Positions 10,121-52,412 of a DNA stretch of 64,000 nt are shown here, one piece after another. Within the stretch, counting starts at the first letter, position 1; each line of letters starts with the position of its first letter. Where the stretch lies: NCBI GenBank assembly GCA_030295235.1, contig AP026154.1, positions 496,001 through 560,000 of the forward strand, in the 5' to 3' direction. The position numbers were made by a program, and so were the translations under genes. The stretch is from Fistulifera solaris (taxonomy: Eukaryota). The notes beneath the pieces were generated by a model that saw nothing but the letters and a program-made list of their open reading frames with translations, was not told the origin of the DNA and did no database searches.

Positions 10121-12330
10121 TTACCAGCCGTCTGCGCTTTCATCGACCGCACCGCTGCCTAGCGCAAAGACATGAATTTTATCTTTCTCAAAGCTTGGTA
10201 TGTATAGTTTTGCATAACCTGTGTCTTGAGGAGACGAAGTGAAATCGTCATAACCGATTGCAATACTACCAACGGTTGCTCCGCATTCAATCTCCATCAT
10301 GAGCTTGTAGGAAGGACTAGATTCTTCATTATCGGTGGCTAATGTTTCGTCTGGACGGAACACAAAGGCCGATTCGGCACAATCGCCAGCAACTGCAATC
10401 AACGGCCGTTTCTTCCCTCGGTCGTCTTTGTGAGCATGAAAGGTATATACAAATCCAGGCGCGCCGGGGTTCACCATATTTCCCAGTTTGCCCTTGACTT
10501 TAAACCCCGTAGCTACAGTCGTGCGCACCCAAGGCTCTGTTTTCCACGCATCGGCTTGTCCATTCGGAACACGATACGCAAACAAGGATCCACCTTCTAA
10601 TGGCTGATATTTGCTTTGGGAGGCATCTTCGCTTGTACCGGGGTCATACAAACATTCATGACTAGTCACGAGCAAATGCGAGAAATGATCCCCTTGTTCC
10701 AATGTTTTGACAGTACTGCCCGAGTCCACAACAACGTGTTGCGCTGCTGTCGATGTAATGCCCAAGTCAGCCAAAATGGATCCAAAGGCCGCACCGCAAT
10801 TCTCATCAATGTCACGAGAAAAAACAACTTTGGGGGAAAGACCTCGTTGGATCGAGTGCAATGAGACTTTGCCAGGAAAGAATTGAGACGATAAGACTTC
10901 AATAGTATCATCATTGGGATTCATGTCAGCGACACAGAACATGACATCAGGTCCCGAGGCCAATACATGGGCCTTCCATGGAAGATGCTTCGGATCGAGT
11001 GGATCAAAGACAGTTCCGTCGTGATCCAAAGGGGTACCCGTGGTAGGATCTATACGCGCCGGTACCGGACATTCCAACCAAATCAATTCTCCCGTCTTTT
11101 GAATTCCTGACATAATGTTCAAGTCAGCATTTAACGATGTCGAAACTTGACAACGCGCGGTCAAAAGTGATTGGCGCCCATCTCCAGTCAAATCCACCCA
11201 AACGGCCCTATGATAGAACCACCGATCGTTGGTCGTATCCAGTAATGGATGTTGCCGTTGCTGTTGCAATCGCAAAGAGGACAATGGCAAACGTCCAAAA
11301 TACCGTTTGGGTGAGGTCAATGGCCAATTGCGGGTCGTGGTAGTACCGGTCAACGATACGGTCCATTCCCGATGCAGATGACCGGGATACCGTACAACAT
11401 ACAATCCACCCCGATCTTTGCCGGGTACCAAAAATCCATCGCACACCAACAAAGCATCGTTGTGCCAAGGGACCGTTTGAACTTCGTTGGGCCATAAGAT
11501 GGTCCGTGCAGTTTTGTCATTGACCGAAGACAATTCGGTCGTCGCACAATCCATACATCGAACAATCCCTTTGCGTCCCGCCAACGAAAAGCCCGTCATC
11601 CACAATTGATCTTGGGTACAACAAATGCTAGTTTCTTCAGTGGTGAAAGAATAATATCGAGACTCTTGCGTCAATTGGGGTACAATTTGCAAATACCCGG
11701 GCCGTTCCGTCTTAATTTCGGCCAACAATTCGACTTTCATCATGTCTTGTCGTTCGTTTTGTGTATACCATTGCCATTGATCTAAAGACGCCAAACTACG
11801 ACTCGCAATGGTCCCATTGACGTAAACAGTCGTCGTACTACTCAACCATTGTCGGGTTGGTGTTTCCTGTAACGTAATACGGAGAGGATATTTGCCCGTA
11901 ATCAAAAAGCCTTGTCGACTGTGCGTGCGACTTAAAATCGATTGATGGAATTTGGATAAGCCATCCAGTGATGATGATGATGATAATGATGATGATAATA
12001 ATAATGTAGTTGATTTCGTTGATGATTGCTTTGTATTCCATGTTGCTGGCACTGCAATAGATGTTAGCGTAGTAGCACTTTTAGTTCTTGTCAAAGAGGT
12101 GACGTTTTGTGTCACGGAACAACAACAAGAAGAAGAAGAAGTCTCTAACACGGAAGTTGGGGAAGGTTGAGCGACGTGCTGTCGCACTACGTGCTGTATT
12201 GGTTTTGGATGGTGAAGAAAGGATTGTGAATGGAGGAAAAATGATTCCAAAACAGCAGTGTCAGCGTCGTTACTCGGAAGGGACGAGAGAAAGGTAATTT
12301 TCGTTTTCTTGTTGTTGTTGTCGTTGTCAT
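10121..12330 (-). CDS. VCBS/FG-GAP-like beta-propeller protein; likely start 12330 with a 1-base frame break in the A4 run 12249-12252
   Basis: 709-aa ORF with WFYHRAVWVDLTGDGRQSLLTAR (DxxGDG loop), GPDVMF, GAPGF, RPLIAVAGD and GATVGSIA. The ORF opens on TTG; the upstream ATG frame joins if one base is added in the homopolymer. Confidence 0.65.
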
Positions 12331-12429
12331 CGTATTCAAGTTTGTGAAGTGTTTACCGCAGAATATATAATATAGACAATCGCTGGGACGAGAAATATCT
12401 CTTCTCACTCTCGCCCTCTTTTCGTTTTC

Positions 12430-12537
<108 letters not shown>

Positions 12538-12906
12538 ATGATGATGATGTTGTTATTATTTGTTATTGGCTGCTTGAAGTTTTGTTGCGTGAAAAGGAAC
12601 GCGAAACGGTTATTCGCCGGTACGACACCTCTATGGTCTCGACCACCTATCGTATGGTACTATTGGAAAGACAGCTAATTATTTTCCTATACTGACGTAA
12701 GTACAATCACGAAACCTCAGGCACAAGACTGACTCGTAAGTGACGAGTCGTCACGACTCAAGGAATGACTATAGCGTCTCTCCTCCTTGGGAGGTGAAGT
12801 TGGCTTGGCTTTATTTTAGTAACGTCTCCATCCCAAAACTCCTTTCTTGTCAGAATTGAGATCTGATGGATGACTTCATTTCATTTCGTTTCATTTCGTC
12901 TTGTCA

Positions 12907-14112
12907 TCAAAAGTCCGCTTGAAAGTTCAAGCTACTGCCATGACTACTACTTGGAGGACTACTACTCCGTGAGGAGGAGGAGGAGGATTCGGCGACATTG
13001 GCCATGACACCACTCTTTTGATATTCCCCGACTCGTTTTTCGAAAAAGTTTGTCTTTCCCTCCAAACTGATCATATCCATCCAATCAAATGGATTCCGCG
13101 ATCCAAACAATGGTCGGTATCCCAAATCATGCAACAATCGATCGGCCACAAATTCAATGTACTGTGACATGAGACTGGCGTTCATGCCAATCAAACTCAC
13201 GGGCAAGGCCTCGCACACGAATCCTTTTTCGACCTCGACAGCTTCCGCAATCACGGCATGAATGTCTCGTTCCGACAATTTGACTTCCAACTTTTGGTAC
13301 AGCTGGCAGGCAAACGAACAGTGCAGTCCTTCATCGCGACTAATGAGTTCATTACTAAACGTCAAACCGGGCATCAGCCCTCGTTTCTTGAGCCAAAAGA
13401 TGGCACAAAAAGCTCCCGAAAAGAAGATCCCTTCCACGGCCGCAAAGGCCACCAACCGTTCCGCAAAGGAGGCTTCCGAACCAATATACCGCTGTGCCCA
13501 GGCCGCTTTCCGACGGACACTGGGTACTTGGGTATGCGCCGCAAAGAGTACTTGTCGATCGGATGGATTGGTAATGTACGTATCAATAAGAAGACAGTAG
13601 GTTTCTTGATGAATGCTTTCCATGGCCATTTGGAATCCATAAAAACAGCGGGCTTCCGGGACCGTCACTTCCCGACAAAATCGTTCCGCCAAATTTTCCA
13701 CCACAATACCATCGGCACCAGCAAAGAAGGCCAAGACCATACTGATGAAATGTCGTTCGGATGACGTTAAGGATTGCCAATCGGTAACATCCTGACTGAG
13801 ATCAATTTCGTCGGCCGTCCAAAACGAAGCCACGTGTTGCTTGTACATGTTCCACAAATCGGCATGTTGAATGGGAAACAAGGAAAAGCGGGAATCATCG
13901 TCGGTTCGACAAATGGGTTCAACGAATGGCAGGGTGGACCGTGTGGATCCACCCCGTGGTTCCGAAGAAGCACCACCTCCTCCTCCTCCGCGAAAGGAAG
14001 CTCTTTGGGTTCGCTGCGAAAACGATCGATGCGGTCGAAAGATGGCCGTGACATGATGTGATAGCAGTAATAACCCAATACACCCAGCAAGAATGTATTT
14101 TGAAGAAATCAT
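12907..14112 (-). CDS. RNR2: Ribonucleotide reductase small subunit (class Ia R2) with N-terminal signal peptide and transit-like extension
   Basis: [33 protein letters not shown] (ExxH plus radical Tyr), [28 protein letters not shown] and C-terminal FQADF. Single exon. Confidence 0.96.
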
Positions 14113-14799
14113 GATGATGATAATAGTAGTAGTAGTATTTGTTGAATGGATAATATGTGTGTGTGTGTGTGGATGATTTTAGACAAGAAAGACAATGAAA
14201 ACGATAACGAACGAATGGGATGGTACGTCGTCGTGTGTTGTGTATAGCTTGATATGTAGCGGAGCTTTTATAGGTAGCAATCCCTTGCTCAATATTTATT
14301 ATTTAGAAATTGATGGATCGGAAGAAAGCAGGAAAAGGAAGTTGTCACCGCCAGCTAAATATCATCATCGGCGATGGCTAGAGTAGAGTATGCGCTGGTG
14401 TTGGCTTTTTTTTTATTCCGCGAAATTCAGTGATTTGGTGGCGACAGAAAGACAGACCGACCGACCGAATGACTGCGCTGCCGCAGGTTGTTTCGTGGTG
14501 GAGAGGAGGGGTGAGCGACGCGTTGACGCGCGAAAGGTTGCGCAGTCCGTCTTATCTTATCTTGTCTGTCCGTACGTTCGTTCGCCGCCTAAAATTGTCG
14601 CTCTTCGGACGACGCTTCCTTCATCACAATCCAAAAAAATGGAGTACTTGTAAAAATCATCACGATCGCTGCAAAAGAAAACAACAAAAAAGCAACATCA
14701 CAAAATAAATAATACAAAGTATCAAGAAGGTTCTTCTAACTGTGTTACAAAAGTCTTTCATCTCGCGTATTCGACTCTTATCTTTGCTGTGGTGTTGAA

Positions 14800-32761: not shown

Positions 32762-34607
32762 ATGATAACCTTGGAGTGCCGATCATCGACTTTCCTGATT
32801 GCGTTCTGGGTAGTGTTGTTGGCGTGGCAAAGAACGTCTGTGCATTCCTATGCTCCGAGAAGTGCGAGTAATCTTTCTCTTTCGAGACAAAAACGGCACT
32901 TTTTGCTGCCACAATCAAGCCTTTTCCCTCGCAACAAAAGCATTCCGTTGTCAGCGAGACGATCTTCGTCGTCTCAAGAGCAAAGTGCCGATGACACACA
33001 AAAGGATGACAAATCATCCCCTGCATCCAACGAGCGGATTGTCGAATTCAAACTACATTCCTCTATCGGCAGTATCTCTGCCGAAGTCTGGGATTCTTGC
33101 TTATCTAATACTTCGTCACCCTTTCTTTCACACGCATGGCTCCGATGCTTGGAGGAATCAAAATGCGCGTCCCCTTCCACTGGTTGGGTACCCTCACACG
33201 TTTCCATTTTGATGGACTCGCAAACGGTGGGCTTTGTTCCTCTCTATATCAAAGGGCATTCGTTAGGAGAGTTCATCTTTGATCAACAATTTGCCGAAGC
33301 CGCTTATCAGAATGGTATCGACTATTATCCCAAATTATTAGTCGGTGTACCCTTTACTCCTGCTACGGGGCATCGCATTTTGTGGCATCCGCAACTCGTT
33401 CTACAAAGCTTTTCTCGTGAAGAGATTAAAACCTTGAATCAATCGGTGGCTCGATTCTTGAAACAGTTGGCTTCCAGCAATCGAGTATCGTCAGTGCACA
33501 TAAATTTTCTCACGGAATCAGAAGCCGAAGATTTAGGCGGGCCATTGCCATTGCCCGTCGAAGATTCGGAGGATGTTAAGGGCGTTGCTTTGAAAATTCG
33601 TTCTATTTTTCAGCGACTGGATATCAAGGACACGTACTTGCGACGGACGTCACTCCAATATCACTGGCAGAATGTGAATCCGAACAATGGCGGAAAACCG
33701 TTTGAATCTTTTGATGACTACTTGTCTTGTTTCCAAAAGCAAAAAGAGGATAAACATACGGCGTGAGCGAAAGAAGGTGTTGGAGGAAGAAGGCGTCGTC
33801 ATTGATGTGATTACCGGCAAGGATATTCTACAATATCCTGGTCTGGTCGAACGCATATTTAAAATATATTTGTCTACAATTGACAAAATGATGTGGGGTC
33901 GTCAGTATCTGACGATGGAGTTTTTTCAACTACTGGCTCGTTCAGATTTCATTGATTACCTTGTTTTTGTGTGTGCGCGGCAAAATGTTTCCGAACGTGA
34001 GGACAAACTGGAGGCTTCCGATGTCTTTGCGGGTACATTCAGTAAGTGATGTGCTCGACTATCATGGATGCCATTTTGCATTCACTTCTCACCATTCTTC
34101 TTCATCAAGATATCGTGAAAGATGGAGTCTTTTATGGTCGTTATTGGGTAAGGTTAGATATAATTTGATTTATCTTCTACACAACCCAGCTGATTCTCAC
34201 ATTCTTCAATTGGAAAAGGGATGTTTACCGGATCGAGAGGTAAAAAACTTGCATTTTGAGTGTTGTTATTGGTCGGCGATCGACTATTGCATTCGTAATG
34301 GCTTGCGAAGGATGGAGCCAGGTGCCGGAGGAGGAGGTGCGTTGTAGTTCTTGCTTTCGCTTTGCGTCGTTACTACGGAGTAATCATTTTTTCTTATATT
34401 TGATTCTTTGCACCTTCAGACTACAAATGGGCACGGGGCTTTGATCCTGCTCTCATTCACTCCGTTCACTACATTTGCCATCCCGGATTGCGACGGGCAG
34501 TGGGACAATTTCTCATCGATGAGACAGAAAACAATGTGGAGCTCACCAAGTTTCTGTTAGAGAGAAGTGCAGTTGGCAACCGACAAGTATCTACAGAGAA
34601 ATGCTGA
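32762..34607 (+). CDS. DUF482/FemAB-related GNAT-fold protein with plastid-type bipartite leader; introns 34042-34109, 34148-34218, 34337-34419; frame break at 33733-33738
   Basis: PFLSHAWLRCLEES, PLYIKGHSLGEFIFDQ, YYPKLLVGVPFTPATG, SSVHINF, QYHWQN, YGRYW|G, LHFECCYW and EPGAGGG|DYKWARGFDP. Leader cleavage VHS-YAP. Confidence 0.87.
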
Positions 34608-47062: not shown

Positions 47063-48353
47063 TTAGGGCAACACGCATTGCGAGAAATACTCAGTTTTCT
47101 TCTCGCAGACCAATCCGGCGCAGCATGCTTTCTGGATGCAGTTCTGGAAACGCGGAACGCAATTCGTACCAACGGGATCAGTGACCGGAGCTTTCACAGG
47201 AGAGACAACTGGAGGCTTGACAGGGGGAAGGAACTGGGACTTTCACAGGGGTAACGACCGGTGCTTTCGCAGGAGCTGAAACGGGAGCCTTAACAGGAGC
47301 CGCAACGGGAGCCTTAACAGGAGAAGCAGCGGGAGGGCTACCGGAACCATCCAACACCGAAACTAATGCAACAAAAGTGACCGATTGTGTGAGGCACGAC
47401 ACATTGACTTAATTCCGTCATACTTTGTATCTTCGTGCACTTACTTTCGGCACAATTCCAGAACTGTTCCGGTTTTCCCAGACCATCTTTGGAGTAAGGA
47501 AGCGTGCATTGCGCCCTTTTAAGATCGCTACGGACAGGATCGTACGAAACGTTGGTAAAATACTCTTTATATCCGGGAGGAAGGCAGCTGAAAAAATCGA
47601 TGAGTTGCGAAGCAACAGAAAAATGTCGAGCAATAAATTGGACAATAAATCGCTCATTTAATGTCCGTGTCTGTACTTACGAGTTGGACGTCACGTAACG
47701 CCACTATGACATCAAAAGTGTTTGGTGAATCATCATCGTGACAAATTGATACGGTGAGTGAGAAATCCTATGCCAACCAGATTCGGGCTTGATTCGCTAT
47801 AAATACTGCTTACCTGAAGAAGCACTTGGTCGCCAACCAAATTGTTTGGCAAACGAAACTTCATGGTATAAGTCTCATAACGCTCAGCGAGGTATCCTCG
47901 ATCTGGGTACTTCGGATCCTTTGGCATGTCGTAATCCACATCCTCCATAAACTCCAAGGGATACGAATCCAAACAAGCTTGCGTCGACTGACGACCCTTG
48001 GGGCAAGCGCGGAGCTCAATATGTCCCCAGTGATACGCCCAAACACCCGTACTCACTGTAATAACTTGCCCGCGCTGATACGTGGCTTGCGGCTTCCAAG
48101 GCATGGGGTTTCCGGTCGAGTCGACCCAAGCATCGTAATCTTTTTCGTCAACATAACCGCACACGCCGTTGTTGCGATTCAAGCATTGCCAACAATACTC
48201 CTTCACAGGGACACCCGACTTCTCACCATTCGTTCCTTCTTGACGAGCCACCTCGTTTCGACTGCGCGGCAAGAGGAGACTGCCGTGCGCCTCGACGCTG
48301 CTTGGCATCCAAGTCGTCAGCGCAAACGCGATGGAAATGAGAAAGCGAAACAT
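47063..48353 (-). CDS. Secreted lytic polysaccharide monooxygenase (AA15/AA10-like) with Pro-rich linker and CBM1-like tail; introns 47704-47813, 47588-47680, 47363-47444; frame break at G5 47223-47227
   Basis: Signal peptide ends VEA|HGSL (N-terminal His). AYHWGHIELRACP, LLQ|WRYVTSNS|C and PEQFWNCAE|I. (PVKAP)-type linker, then CVPRFQNCIQKACCAGLVCERKTEYFSQCVLP-stop. Confidence 0.85.
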
Positions 48354-49218
48354 AGCTCTACTCTTGTATTTGTGTATCTCGAGAGTTGAAAATTGTGAGT
48401 GTGCCATGTTGAAACGTTTCAATGTCGGCCAGTCCTGAGAAACGACGTTGAAGCATTCCAGAGGAATTTGACATGGCAAATAAATCGCCTTCCTCTAAGA
48501 AAAGACGCTTTAACAGGGTCGGACTCTATTCAAACTTCTTCGTGCATAGCGTCGACTTACAGCGGCGACAGGATTGTAAAATCCTTCAATCCTTGATACG
48601 ACTAGAGGCACATAGGCAATATTTTCCCTTGTCCGAACTTCTTTAAGTAGAATGAATTGTCAAGCTCTTGTTGGATTGATATTTCCTATTCGGCGAACAT
48701 TGTTTATGCGGACCGACGAATCCATCACGCATTAGGTATTTGTATCAATCGGAAATGCGGCAAAAATAATATAAGCTTAAACAGAAACCAGAACGGGCTT
48801 ATAGGAAGACAAAATGTGAGGGCACTGATAGTGCCGCATTTTGTCAGAATGATCCATTTGCATCAGCGATTCGTTTCATCATTATAAAGATAATCTTCAC
48901 TTGCTTTGAAGCAAGAGACGAATAGTAGAAATGAATAATGAAGGCACGTCGTTAGCGCAGAACGCTGAACTTTCATTTGTTCACAAACTATTTTTCAAAG
49001 TCGCACAGCCAGTGTCAGCTCGAGTGTCATCAGTCACACCGGTGAAAAGCCGCTCTAGCACTGGGATTTGAACCAGTCCGCAAGTTTGTTCTTGTCGTTC
49101 GAAAATGCAGACTAATCTAGCTAACATTTATCCATTTATCATGTAAATGTAAATAGTTTCCTAGAAGTTAGACTTCATGACCTTTTTCATTTTCAACACT
49201 AGACATGACTTGTTTTAT

Positions 49219-51548: not shown

Positions 51549-52412
51549 CTATGAATCTTGCTTTTCTACATCCTTCTTGTTATTATTGCGACCAAGCAGA
51601 CTCGATACTTTGCGTTCAAACGAACTGACCGTTAGTCCTCCCACTACCAACGGAACCCACAATAGGGAATACGGCAACAATCCATCACGCAACAAGTGCT
51701 CTGAAATCCATCCGATCAAGGAACTGTTAACTATTGTCGTCCAATGCCACCAAAGGGTTCCATTGATACTTCCCAGAACGAGGCCCACCGCAATTTGTTC
51801 CCACGTATGATAGGCTTTGATACAGACACGATAATACAAGCTCATCGCCACATAGATCACCAAAGGACCTGCCGTGATGGGAAATTGCCAGGCGGTGAAC
51901 ATACCAATGAACCCCAAACTCATGGCGTGGGATGATGGCATGCCATGATCGTTGGGTATGGTAATATCGTTACTGGTGGTTGCATTCTCCACACTGGCTG
52001 TAATAGGACGTTCTTGTCGCAGGAGTCGTTTGAGTATTTTCGACAAAATTCCGTTCGAAACGGAACCAATAAATAAGGAAACCGTCAAAGCATTCCGATA
52101 CCAAACGATGGCGCAAAAGACGGAACCGCCGACGAGTAACGAAGTGGTAGATCCGACGAGTCGAATTAGGTTTGTCATAGGATCTTGTTCGTTTGTAGTA
52201 GTACGAGTGTCATCGTCGGAAGGAGACGCCTGCATGCGTTTTAGTGTGACAAGAACCGCCTGTTTCCGATTCGAATGTACGGAGAATGGTCTGTGATGCA
52301 TCGTAGTTGTAACTGTCGTCGGCATCATCGGCATGTGTGACACTCGAAAGGCCTCAATGGTCGGAAAGGCGGCAGAAATAACTAAAAACACGAATGTAAC
52401 AAGACTCAACAT
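51549..52412 (-). CDS. PAP2-family lipid phosphate phosphatase (LPP-epsilon/dolichyl-PP phosphatase-like), plastid-type leader
   Basis: KRLLRQERP, GMPSSH and YYRV..AYHTWEQIAVG; signal peptide cleavage IEA-F followed by a Thr/Ser/Arg-rich transit peptide. Confidence 0.87.
   Translation of the reverse strand: MLSLVTFVFLVISAAFPTIEAFRVSHMPMMPTTVTTTMHHRPFSVHSNRKQAVLVTLKRMQASPSDDDTRTTTNEQDPMTNLIRLVGSTTSLLVGGSVFCAIVWYRNALTVSLFIGSVSNGILSKILKRLLRQERPITASVENATTSNDITIPNDHGMPSSHAMSLGFIGMFTAWQFPITAGPLVIYVAMSLYYRVCIKAYHTWEQIAVGLVLGSINGTLWWHWTTIVNSSLIGWISEHLLRDGLLPYSLLWVPLVVGGLTVSSFERKVSSLLGRNNNKKDVEKQDS

Follow-up and report, generated by a model that had tools for sequence, protein, structure and literature searches.

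All DNA precursors are made by way of ribonucleotide reductase (RNR), which in eukaryotes is regarded as an enzyme of the cytosol. We analyzed a stretch of 64 kb from the genome of the diatom Fistulifera solaris (contig AP026154.1, positions 496,001 to 560,000; referred to as the window, with all positions below counted from its first nucleotide), which contains an intact, single-exon gene for a class Ia RNR small subunit (R2). The first ~60 residues of the encoded protein fall into three parts, a short and cleavable-looking signal peptide, an Arg-rich stretch poor in acidic residues, and two RGG motifs, which together form a leader in front of the catalytic core. The gene comprises the following features:

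12907..14112, minus strand: coding sequence of the class Ia RNR small subunit, 401 residues plus stop codon, single exon, intact (open reading frame list, translation, Pfam PF00268, alignment to mouse R2)
14179..14181, minus strand: in-frame stop codon 23 codons 5' of Met1, with no ATG in between (translation of 14041-14322)
14044..14112, minus strand: signal-peptide-like segment, residues 1-23, with the n-region MISSK, an h-region of 12 residues and the c-region SHHVTA, placing Val at -3 and Ala at -1 (sequence, heuristic)
13993..14043, minus strand: transit-peptide-like stretch, residues 24-40, rich in Arg and in Ser/Thr and free of acidic residues (sequence)
13984..13992, minus strand: first RGG motif, residues 41-43, context SFRGGGGGG, at the point where the leader turns from basic to acidic (sequence, charge profile)
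13948..13956, minus strand: second RGG motif, residues 53-55, context EPRGGSTR (sequence)
13090..13890, minus strand: ferritin-like R2 core, residues 75-341, with the ligands D134, E165, H168, E227, E261 and H264 and the radical Tyr172 (Pfam, alignment to mouse R2)
12910..12930, minus strand: C-terminal R1-binding tail LNFQADF, residues 395-401 (sequence)

The core is recognized by the Pfam profile PF00268 over the full length of the model (residues 75-341 against profile positions 1-281 of 281; E = 6e-107; 357.6 bits at a cut-off of 33.6). Its best solved relative is mouse R2 (1h0n), which aligns with residues 62-378 of the query over chain residues 66-384 (E = 2.5e-133). All six metal ligands and Tyr172, located in the sequence ESIHQETY, line up with the corresponding mouse columns; except for 170-177, the mouse residue numbers used in this comparison are those we presume to be correct. 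The R1-binding tail is present as well, so that the intact catalytic equipment described in a first-pass annotation of the window is borne out by the alignment. The core further shows the clade signature E-x-[IV]-H-Q-E-x-Y, and tails ending in (D/N)-x-D-F recur in most of the inspected rows of the leader-bearing clades and also in canonical R2s.

The same annotation had reported a leader in which a signal peptide precedes a basic, RGG-containing stretch, and the strings it quoted are found exactly (the signal peptide at residues 1-23, FRGGGGGG with its RGG at residues 41-43 and PRGGS with its RGG at residues 53-55). Met1 is the first ATG past the in-frame stop codon at 14179-14181, and the next in-frame Met, residue 89, already lies within the conserved core. 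Since there is no upstream or intermediate in-frame ATG, a functional R2 produced from this gene must carry the leader. The homeologous copy (P0002) has a nearly identical core; its leader has diverged and contains indels, yet the signal peptide and the segments FRPHRSF, FRGG and EPRGGST are kept.

As a separate observation, contigs of the runs X1-X4 that cover positions 13021-13720 contain two sequence forms of the R2 core, which differ at many third-codon-like positions. This pattern is consistent with an allodiploid genome that has the gene in two homeologous copies. The contigs of run X1 span all of the DNA compared around the gene, intergenic parts included, and those of runs X2-X4 comprise only parts of the R2 core.

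The leader across diatoms

As an ortholog set, we used the 120 best matches to the R2 protein in a collection of 5.8 billion proteins. The named matches among these 120 come from diatoms only, with Fistulifera, Cylindrotheca, Nitzschia, Pseudo-nitzschia, Mayamaea and Chaetoceros represented together with further MMETSP entries, including ones whose shortened names start with Thalas, Synedr, Gram, Minuto and Odont. Nearly all of them share a fixed order of elements, in which a hydrophobic N-terminus is followed by a basic stretch, the first RGG, a second RGG-S-T, the sequence F-V-E-P-I-C and, finally, the core. The basic stretch often reads x-P-L-(I/L)-P-x-R-x-R-R-R or R-R-P-W. RGG is the commonest tripeptide shared by the leaders, being found in 112 of 120, as opposed to 6.0 on average and 14 at most by chance (500 composition-preserving shuffles per leader). 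Of the eight leaders that lack an exact RGG, four belong to gene models truncated at the N-terminus, three have variant motifs (RSG/RAG and HGGS or YGGS) and one comes from a protein with a different N-terminus. The first motif follows the consensus [LVI]-x-[RSQ]-[LYWIFV]-R-G-G-[SAD] (112 leaders) and the last one L-[PAS]-R-G-G-S-T-[KR] (66 leaders having at least two RGG motifs).

The leader is also present in Corethron hystrix (62% identity) and Stephanopyxis turris, both of which are deep-branching, in transcripts marked as complete, and MMETSP transcripts flagged 'type:complete' carry leaders as well. The first-pass annotation, which had proposed ribonucleotide reduction inside the complex plastid, had made this idea depend on the orthologs sharing the leader, and they indeed do so, complete MMETSP transcripts included. 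At the level of sequence, these comparisons confirm that the leader is a conserved family trait of diatom R2 and not a quirk of one gene.

At least two public diatom gene models clip the leader off, which may explain why it has gone unremarked: P0003 from Fistulifera solaris (335 residues) and P0032 from Pseudo-nitzschia (336 residues) both begin just before the core. Taken at face value, these two models would suggest that the leader is an artefact of annotation or assembly and that the true start lies near the core. We give this explanation almost no weight, because the reading frame is continuous from Met1 without any Met before residue 89, leaders are found in transcriptome orthologs marked as complete, and the conservation of their motifs across diatoms is far above chance. 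Only 36 of the 111 long leaders contain a Met located 30 residues or less from the core anchor, and at least three of these Met residues fall inside the anchor region itself. Core-proximal Met residues are mostly confined to the Nitzschia / Pseudo-nitzschia group, and this copy has none; judging from these counts, an internal start yielding a cytosolic isoform would not be a general feature. In our favored reading, the gene encodes a functional class Ia RNR small subunit in which a conserved, probably cleavable presequence replaces the usual disordered cytosolic N-terminus.

Probable signal peptide, charge and predicted cleavage site

Signal peptides were called with heuristics of our own, which demand a Kyte-Doolittle mean of at least 2.2 over eight residues plus a (-3,-1) site. 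By this standard, 63 of the 120 leaders have both a hydrophobic 8-mer and a site, 17 have a hydrophobic segment without a site, and 40, many of them truncated, stay below the threshold. The 63 sites have Ala or Ser at -1 in 57 cases and mostly Ala or Val at -3, positions at which the heuristic itself favors small residues, and Pro at +2 in 25 cases. In 77 leaders that begin with Met, apolar runs measure 11 residues at the median (quartiles 9-14), and three of them are 20 residues or longer; such lengths are predicted for a signal peptide and not for a membrane span. A mitochondrial presequence was considered and rejected, as the N-terminus is hydrophobic rather than amphipathic and basic, and the same holds for a twin-arginine signal for the lumen, because the Arg cluster is not followed by another hydrophobic domain.

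In the segment that links the signal peptide to the first RGG, the 76 orthologs analyzed contain 14.8% Arg, 6.2% Asp plus Glu and 18.2% Ser plus Thr, with a net charge of +5.0 per sequence. The net charge is -2.6 after the first RGG and -4.3 after the last RGG. This change from +5.0 to -2.6 makes the first RGG a sharp border between a transit-peptide-like and an acidic part of the leader. The first RGG follows the hydrophobic run at a median distance of 46 residues.

These properties are relevant to the idea that the catalytic domain of R2 ends up in the cytosol or nucleus, with the N-terminus serving as an inefficient signal or a tether from which R2 is released by cleavage at the RGG motifs, a form of compartment-based RNR control that would resemble the situation in yeast in principle. 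Such a mechanism would reconcile the leader with cytosolic nucleotide synthesis and with the need of the nucleus for deoxynucleotide triphosphates (dNTPs) if there is no other R2. According to the positive-inside rule, positive charge after a hydrophobic segment favors a cytosolic location of the C-terminal side, and the charge that follows the hydrophobic segment of the R2 leaders is strongly positive. In addition, the context of the first RGG in several orthologs, hydrophobic-R-hydrophobic-R-G-G, resembles the tail of ubiquitin that is cut by cytosolic deubiquitinases. However, the hydrophobic runs are too short to span a membrane and mostly remain below the ~19 or more residues of a signal anchor, the residues at -1 and -3 are small, as in a cleaved signal peptide (a property for which the heuristic selects), and the orthologs have no conserved internal start. 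We therefore consider a release into the cytosol unlikely.

In diatoms, a signal and transit peptide with an ASAFAP motif leads to the stroma, whereas presequences without an aromatic residue at +1 are thought to be periplastidial, as stated in the available parts of a review and of the ASAFind 2.0 paper. Two genes of the window have classic presequences, one encoding a PAP2-family protein (51549-52412, minus strand; …PTIEA↓FRVSH) and the other a FemAB-like protein (32762-33766, plus strand; …TSVHS↓YAPRS), and their A↓F and S↓Y sites indicate that this genome uses the standard diatom code. For this copy of R2, our heuristic predicts cleavage at VTA↓IF, with Ile at +1 instead of the F/W/Y/L that marks a stromal ASAFAP protein. 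The first-pass annotation had arrived at the same site, which, by the published rule, would point to the periplastidial compartment and not to the stroma. Its second suggestion, a cut one residue later that would open the way to the stroma, did not hold up, as it places Ile at -1 and thereby breaks the (-3,-1) rule. Across the 63 heuristic sites, +1 is F/W/Y/L in 16 (F/W/Y in 10) and a different residue in the remaining 47.

An import of R2 into the stroma, where it would supply deoxynucleotides for plastid DNA, has to be weighed against this background. The charge of the leaders is stroma-like, with no Asp or Glu among the first 15 residues in 37 of 63 orthologs and a median net charge of +3 over the first 20 residues, and the homeolog P0002 has Phe at +1, in the manner of the 16 orthologs with F/W/Y/L at this position. 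Moreover, a cut after the Arg of RGG would leave a hydrophobic residue two positions before it, echoing the Leu(-2) motif of stromal proteins described in the accessible portion of Huesgen 2013. The 47 sites without F/W/Y/L at +1, this copy among them, argue against a stromal destination, as do the reported import of dNTPs by plastids (in the excerpt of a nucleotide review) and the lack of any mention of RNR in the available main-text portions of the papers on the ochrophyte plastid proteome and the plastid-fraction proteome of T. pseudonana. On balance, a stromal R2 appears distinctly improbable.

Lineage, partner and compartment

The wider distribution of the leader was assessed with R2 relatives drawn from a library of representatives at 50% identity. 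FastTree was run on 70 rows, leaving out rows shorter than 300 residues or with a core longer than 420 residues, and the quick mode of IQ-TREE on 61 hand-picked rows with cores cut at 450 residues. In the IQ-TREE analysis, a split supported at 99% by the Shimodaira-Hasegawa-like approximate likelihood ratio test (SH-aLRT) separates 37 leader-side rows from 24 canonical rows. The canonical, leaderless side includes Musa, Paramoeba, Porcisia, a vertebrate-like row and the EukProt entry P0436. On the leader side, the diatom R2s form a clade of 18 rows (100% SH-aLRT), most of which have a signal peptide and RGG motifs. Their sister clade of 16 rows (96%) has signal-peptide-like N-termini, mostly without RGG and without the basic stretch, and the R2 of the non-diatom ochrophyte Chrysoparadoxa australica, likewise placed on the leader side, has a signal-peptide-like start with neither RGG nor basic stretch. 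The leader-bearing rows inspected mostly show H-Q-E in the radical motif, whereas canonical R2s have H-S-E. As most of these rows keep the (D/N)-x-D-F tail, they appear to be built to bind R1.

P0436, which is labelled Proboscia alata, is itself a leaderless canonical R2 of the H-S-E type that groups with animal-like and canonical R2s. Either some diatoms possess a second R2 that acts in the cytosol, or the entry stems from contamination of the culture from which the transcriptome was made. Apart from this, several non-diatom R2s (P0133, P0141, P0143, P0154, P0166, P0170, P0182 and P0188) carry N-terminal thioredoxin- or glutaredoxin-like modules with a CxxC motif fused to R2. They look like fusions of a reductant with R2 and would probably belong to giant viruses or marine protists.

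The distribution of the leader bears on the question of whether R2 might remain in the lumen of the endoplasmic reticulum (ER), the chloroplast ER or the nuclear envelope, or elsewhere in the secretory pathway, with the basic stretch and the RGG motifs acting as diatom-specific retention or processing signals. The trait common to the whole leader-bearing clade of 37 rows is only a signal-peptide-like N-terminus. The general scarcity of RGG motifs and basic stretches in the 16-row sister clade and Chrysoparadoxa is explained better by plain ER entry than by plastid import, indicating that the shared ancestral trait is the former and not the latter, a point that counts directly against a periplastidial R2. 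A lumenal location would also be compatible with the absence of lysines from the presequence of this copy, and sequon counts point neither way, in that diatom cores are not depleted of sequons as a sign of ER passage (1.04 per core, as opposed to 0.65 in other R2s). To our knowledge, however, the ER lumen, which is oxidizing, has no reductant system for RNR. Furthermore, the conserved Arg-rich, acid-poor stretch of the diatom proteins has no obvious role in a lumenal resident, and their C-terminus is not of the ER-retention type but an R1-binding motif. The excerpted nucleotide review places PtNTT5, a (deoxy)purine nucleotide transporter, in the ER including the chloroplast ER, which again favors the lumen. 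Taking both sides together, permanent residence of R2 in the secretory pathway seems improbable to us.

We instead favor, at somewhat less than even odds as a whole, a route that leads through the ER to the periplastidial compartment. In its first step, the short signal peptide likely takes the nascent R2 into the ER, where signal peptidase would cut after VTA. The Arg-rich, acid-poor stretch may then act as a transit-like peptide that lets R2 pass the second plastid membrane and reach the periplastidial compartment, a reading to which we assign a probability of about 0.4. As the +1 residue is neither aromatic nor Leu in most orthologs, R2 would stay in this compartment and not proceed to the stroma. 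Removal of the presequence by a cut in or close to the RGG motifs would then give R2 an acidic N-terminus. By analogy, it is conceivable that a deubiquitinase or trypsin-like protease of the compartment makes this cut, either after Gly-Gly or after the Arg of RGG. Finally, R2 would pair with co-imported R1 via its intact tail, using the thioredoxin, NTRC and 6PGDH system of the compartment as reductant, and the resulting deoxynucleotides would leave via NTT transporters. Moog 2011 assigns sTrxH2, sNTRC, 6PGDH, the deubiquitinase ptDUP, proteasome subunits and a trypsin-like protease to the periplastidial compartment, with no mention of RNR in the available text. The periplastidial reading of the R2 leader is plausible but unproven, and the interpretation of the first-pass annotation as a whole appears partly supported by the sequence comparisons. 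It is tempting to speculate that diatoms, and probably related ochrophytes, moved R2 from the cytosol into an ER-derived or periplastidial space, with the periplastidial thioredoxin, NTRC and 6PGDH supplying electrons, NTT transporters distributing the deoxynucleotides and the RGG motifs serving as new maturation sites for a deubiquitinase-like or trypsin-like protease; in this full form, the scenario is rather unlikely.

Apart from the ancestral trait discussed above, several further points weigh against a periplastidial R2. A lysine in the presequence is reportedly required for ubiquitination by SELMA, and Lys is absent from residues 6 to 90 of this copy, while 18 of 76 orthologs have no Lys before the first RGG. 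If the leader-bearing protein is the sole R2 of diatoms, nuclear replication would need an export of deoxynucleotides from the compartment. A diatom R1 was retrieved neither in the protein search with a giant-virus R1 query nor in the metagenome scan, although neither of these is informative on diatoms. According to the ASAFind 2.0 paper, acidic residues occur all along periplastidial presequences, which do not depend on a net positive charge, whereas the R2 leader is strongly basic up to the first RGG. ASAFind 2.0 also finds no more than 25% of the proteins known to be periplastidial, and the authors advise caution with assignments of this kind. No published cleavage motif of diatoms corresponds to RGG; the one described for stromal proteins has Leu at -2 (Huesgen 2013). 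The excerpted nucleotide review describes purine and pyrimidine synthesis in diatoms as cytosolic, with plastids importing (d)NTPs via NTT1/2, and does not mention RNR in that part. Lastly, RNR goes unmentioned in the available main-text portions of the queried papers on periplastid and plastid proteomes, including those on the conserved ochrophyte plastid proteome and the plastid-fraction proteome of T. pseudonana.

The R1 query was a giant-virus protein from a viral locus that adjoins an R2. With it, the R1 search (at least 859 residues) returned at least 120 proteins, which are of bacterial, fungal or animal origin, come from Symbiodinium or are intein-bearing viral forms; among those listed, none bears an N-terminal leader or a diatom label. 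The metagenome scan with the R1 alignment yielded at least 80 loci, with an ATP-cone at or beside the first Met in all readable cases. Atlas searches gave no usable match with the leader and generic R1 clusters only with the viral R1. In the giant-virus contigs L015 (10001-13450), L016, L020, L022 and L064, a eukaryote-like R2 gene is directly followed by R1 on the same strand, an adjacency that appears operon-like and is unusual for RNR of the eukaryotic type. A class II RNR was considered as a cytosolic substitute in diatoms and rejected, as the accessible part of a preprint assigns this enzyme to haptophytes, chlorarachniophytes and Euglena, with diatoms missing from the list.

A literature search for leader-bearing R2 in diatoms, or for R2 in a periplastid, ER or nucleomorph context, found no paper, with supplementary prediction and proteome tables, which may already list R2, lying outside its range. 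Both the enzyme and the general type of its targeting signal are known, and it is their combination and the RGG motifs that we have not found described. The conserved leader suggests that part of DNA-precursor synthesis takes place inside the membrane system around the chloroplast, and the finding bears on the deoxynucleotide supply of plastids with four membranes. If the sole detectable R2 across diatoms has an ER-type presequence, either dNTP synthesis is unexpectedly compartmentalized in this major group of primary producers or RNR is subject to a new mode of control through membrane targeting and clipping. Should the periplastidial reading be true, R2 would become a concrete candidate client for the orphan periplastidial thioredoxin system, and, given a co-targeted R1, the RNR enzyme itself would be relocated.

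Within the window, the neighbors of the R2 gene are an unassigned open reading frame of 540 residues and a gene for a PP5-type phosphatase, and no R1 gene is present in the 64 kb. About 360 bp downstream of the R2 stop codon, at 12300-12545, lies a long (GTT)n microsatellite that passes into (GAT)n; its (GTT)n part is preceded by two copies of a direct repeat of ~45 bp (ctcttttcgttttcttgttgttg...). The window also encodes an LPMO_10 homolog with a signal peptide (47733-48407, minus strand; Pfam E = 6e-12), a family uncommon for a diatom.

Comparison with known systems

The N-terminal ~65 residues of mouse R2 constitute a cytosolic regulatory tail, and in diatom R2 the three-part leader described above extends over an equal length. 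Beyond this region, mouse and human RRM2 (PDB 1H0N, 1W68, 2UW2) align with the diatom core from end to end and share its six ligands, the radical Tyr and a tail ending in ADF, whereas the radical motif is H-S-E in the mammalian proteins and H-Q-E in diatom R2.

Among organellar presequences, those of diatom periplastidial proteins (Gould 2006; Moog 2011; ASAFind 2.0) resemble the R2 leader with its predicted signal peptide, its heuristic cleavage site with small residues and, in most R2 orthologs, its non-aromatic +1 residue. They differ from it, in addition to their acidity, in that conserved RGG motifs of the kind found in R2 are not described for them. Stromal presequences of the ASAFAP type likewise start with a signal peptide, followed by an acid-poor peptide rich in Ser, Thr and Arg, and the acidic region past the putative cut in R2 has its counterpart in the acidic N-termini of mature stromal proteins. 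However, the F/W/Y/L at +1 that defines this class is absent from this copy and from 47 of the 63 orthologs, and the transit-like part of R2 is longer, with a median of 46 residues, than the stromal transit peptides in the accessible portion of Huesgen 2013, which measure 12-42 residues with a mean of 20, are cut after a Leu(-2) motif and are described there without mention of RGG.

A different kind of likeness connects the first RGG to the ubiquitin tail LRLRGG and thereby to ptDUP. The context hydrophobic-x-hydrophobic-R-G-G is common to both, and some orthologs even read VRLRGG, VRVRGG or IRIRGG. Unlike the tail of ubiquitin, the RGG of R2 is not preceded by a ubiquitin fold, and the apparent likeness is one of sequence context.

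Finally, yeast offers a precedent for the control of R2 by compartment: Rnr2/Rnr4 is held in the nucleus by Wtm1/Dif1, and fission yeast uses Spd1. These systems employ a soluble anchor and nuclear import and no ER signal peptide, and no homology to the diatom leader is implied. They nevertheless have in common with a leader-bearing R2 that the separation of R2 from R1 by location serves as a regulatory principle.

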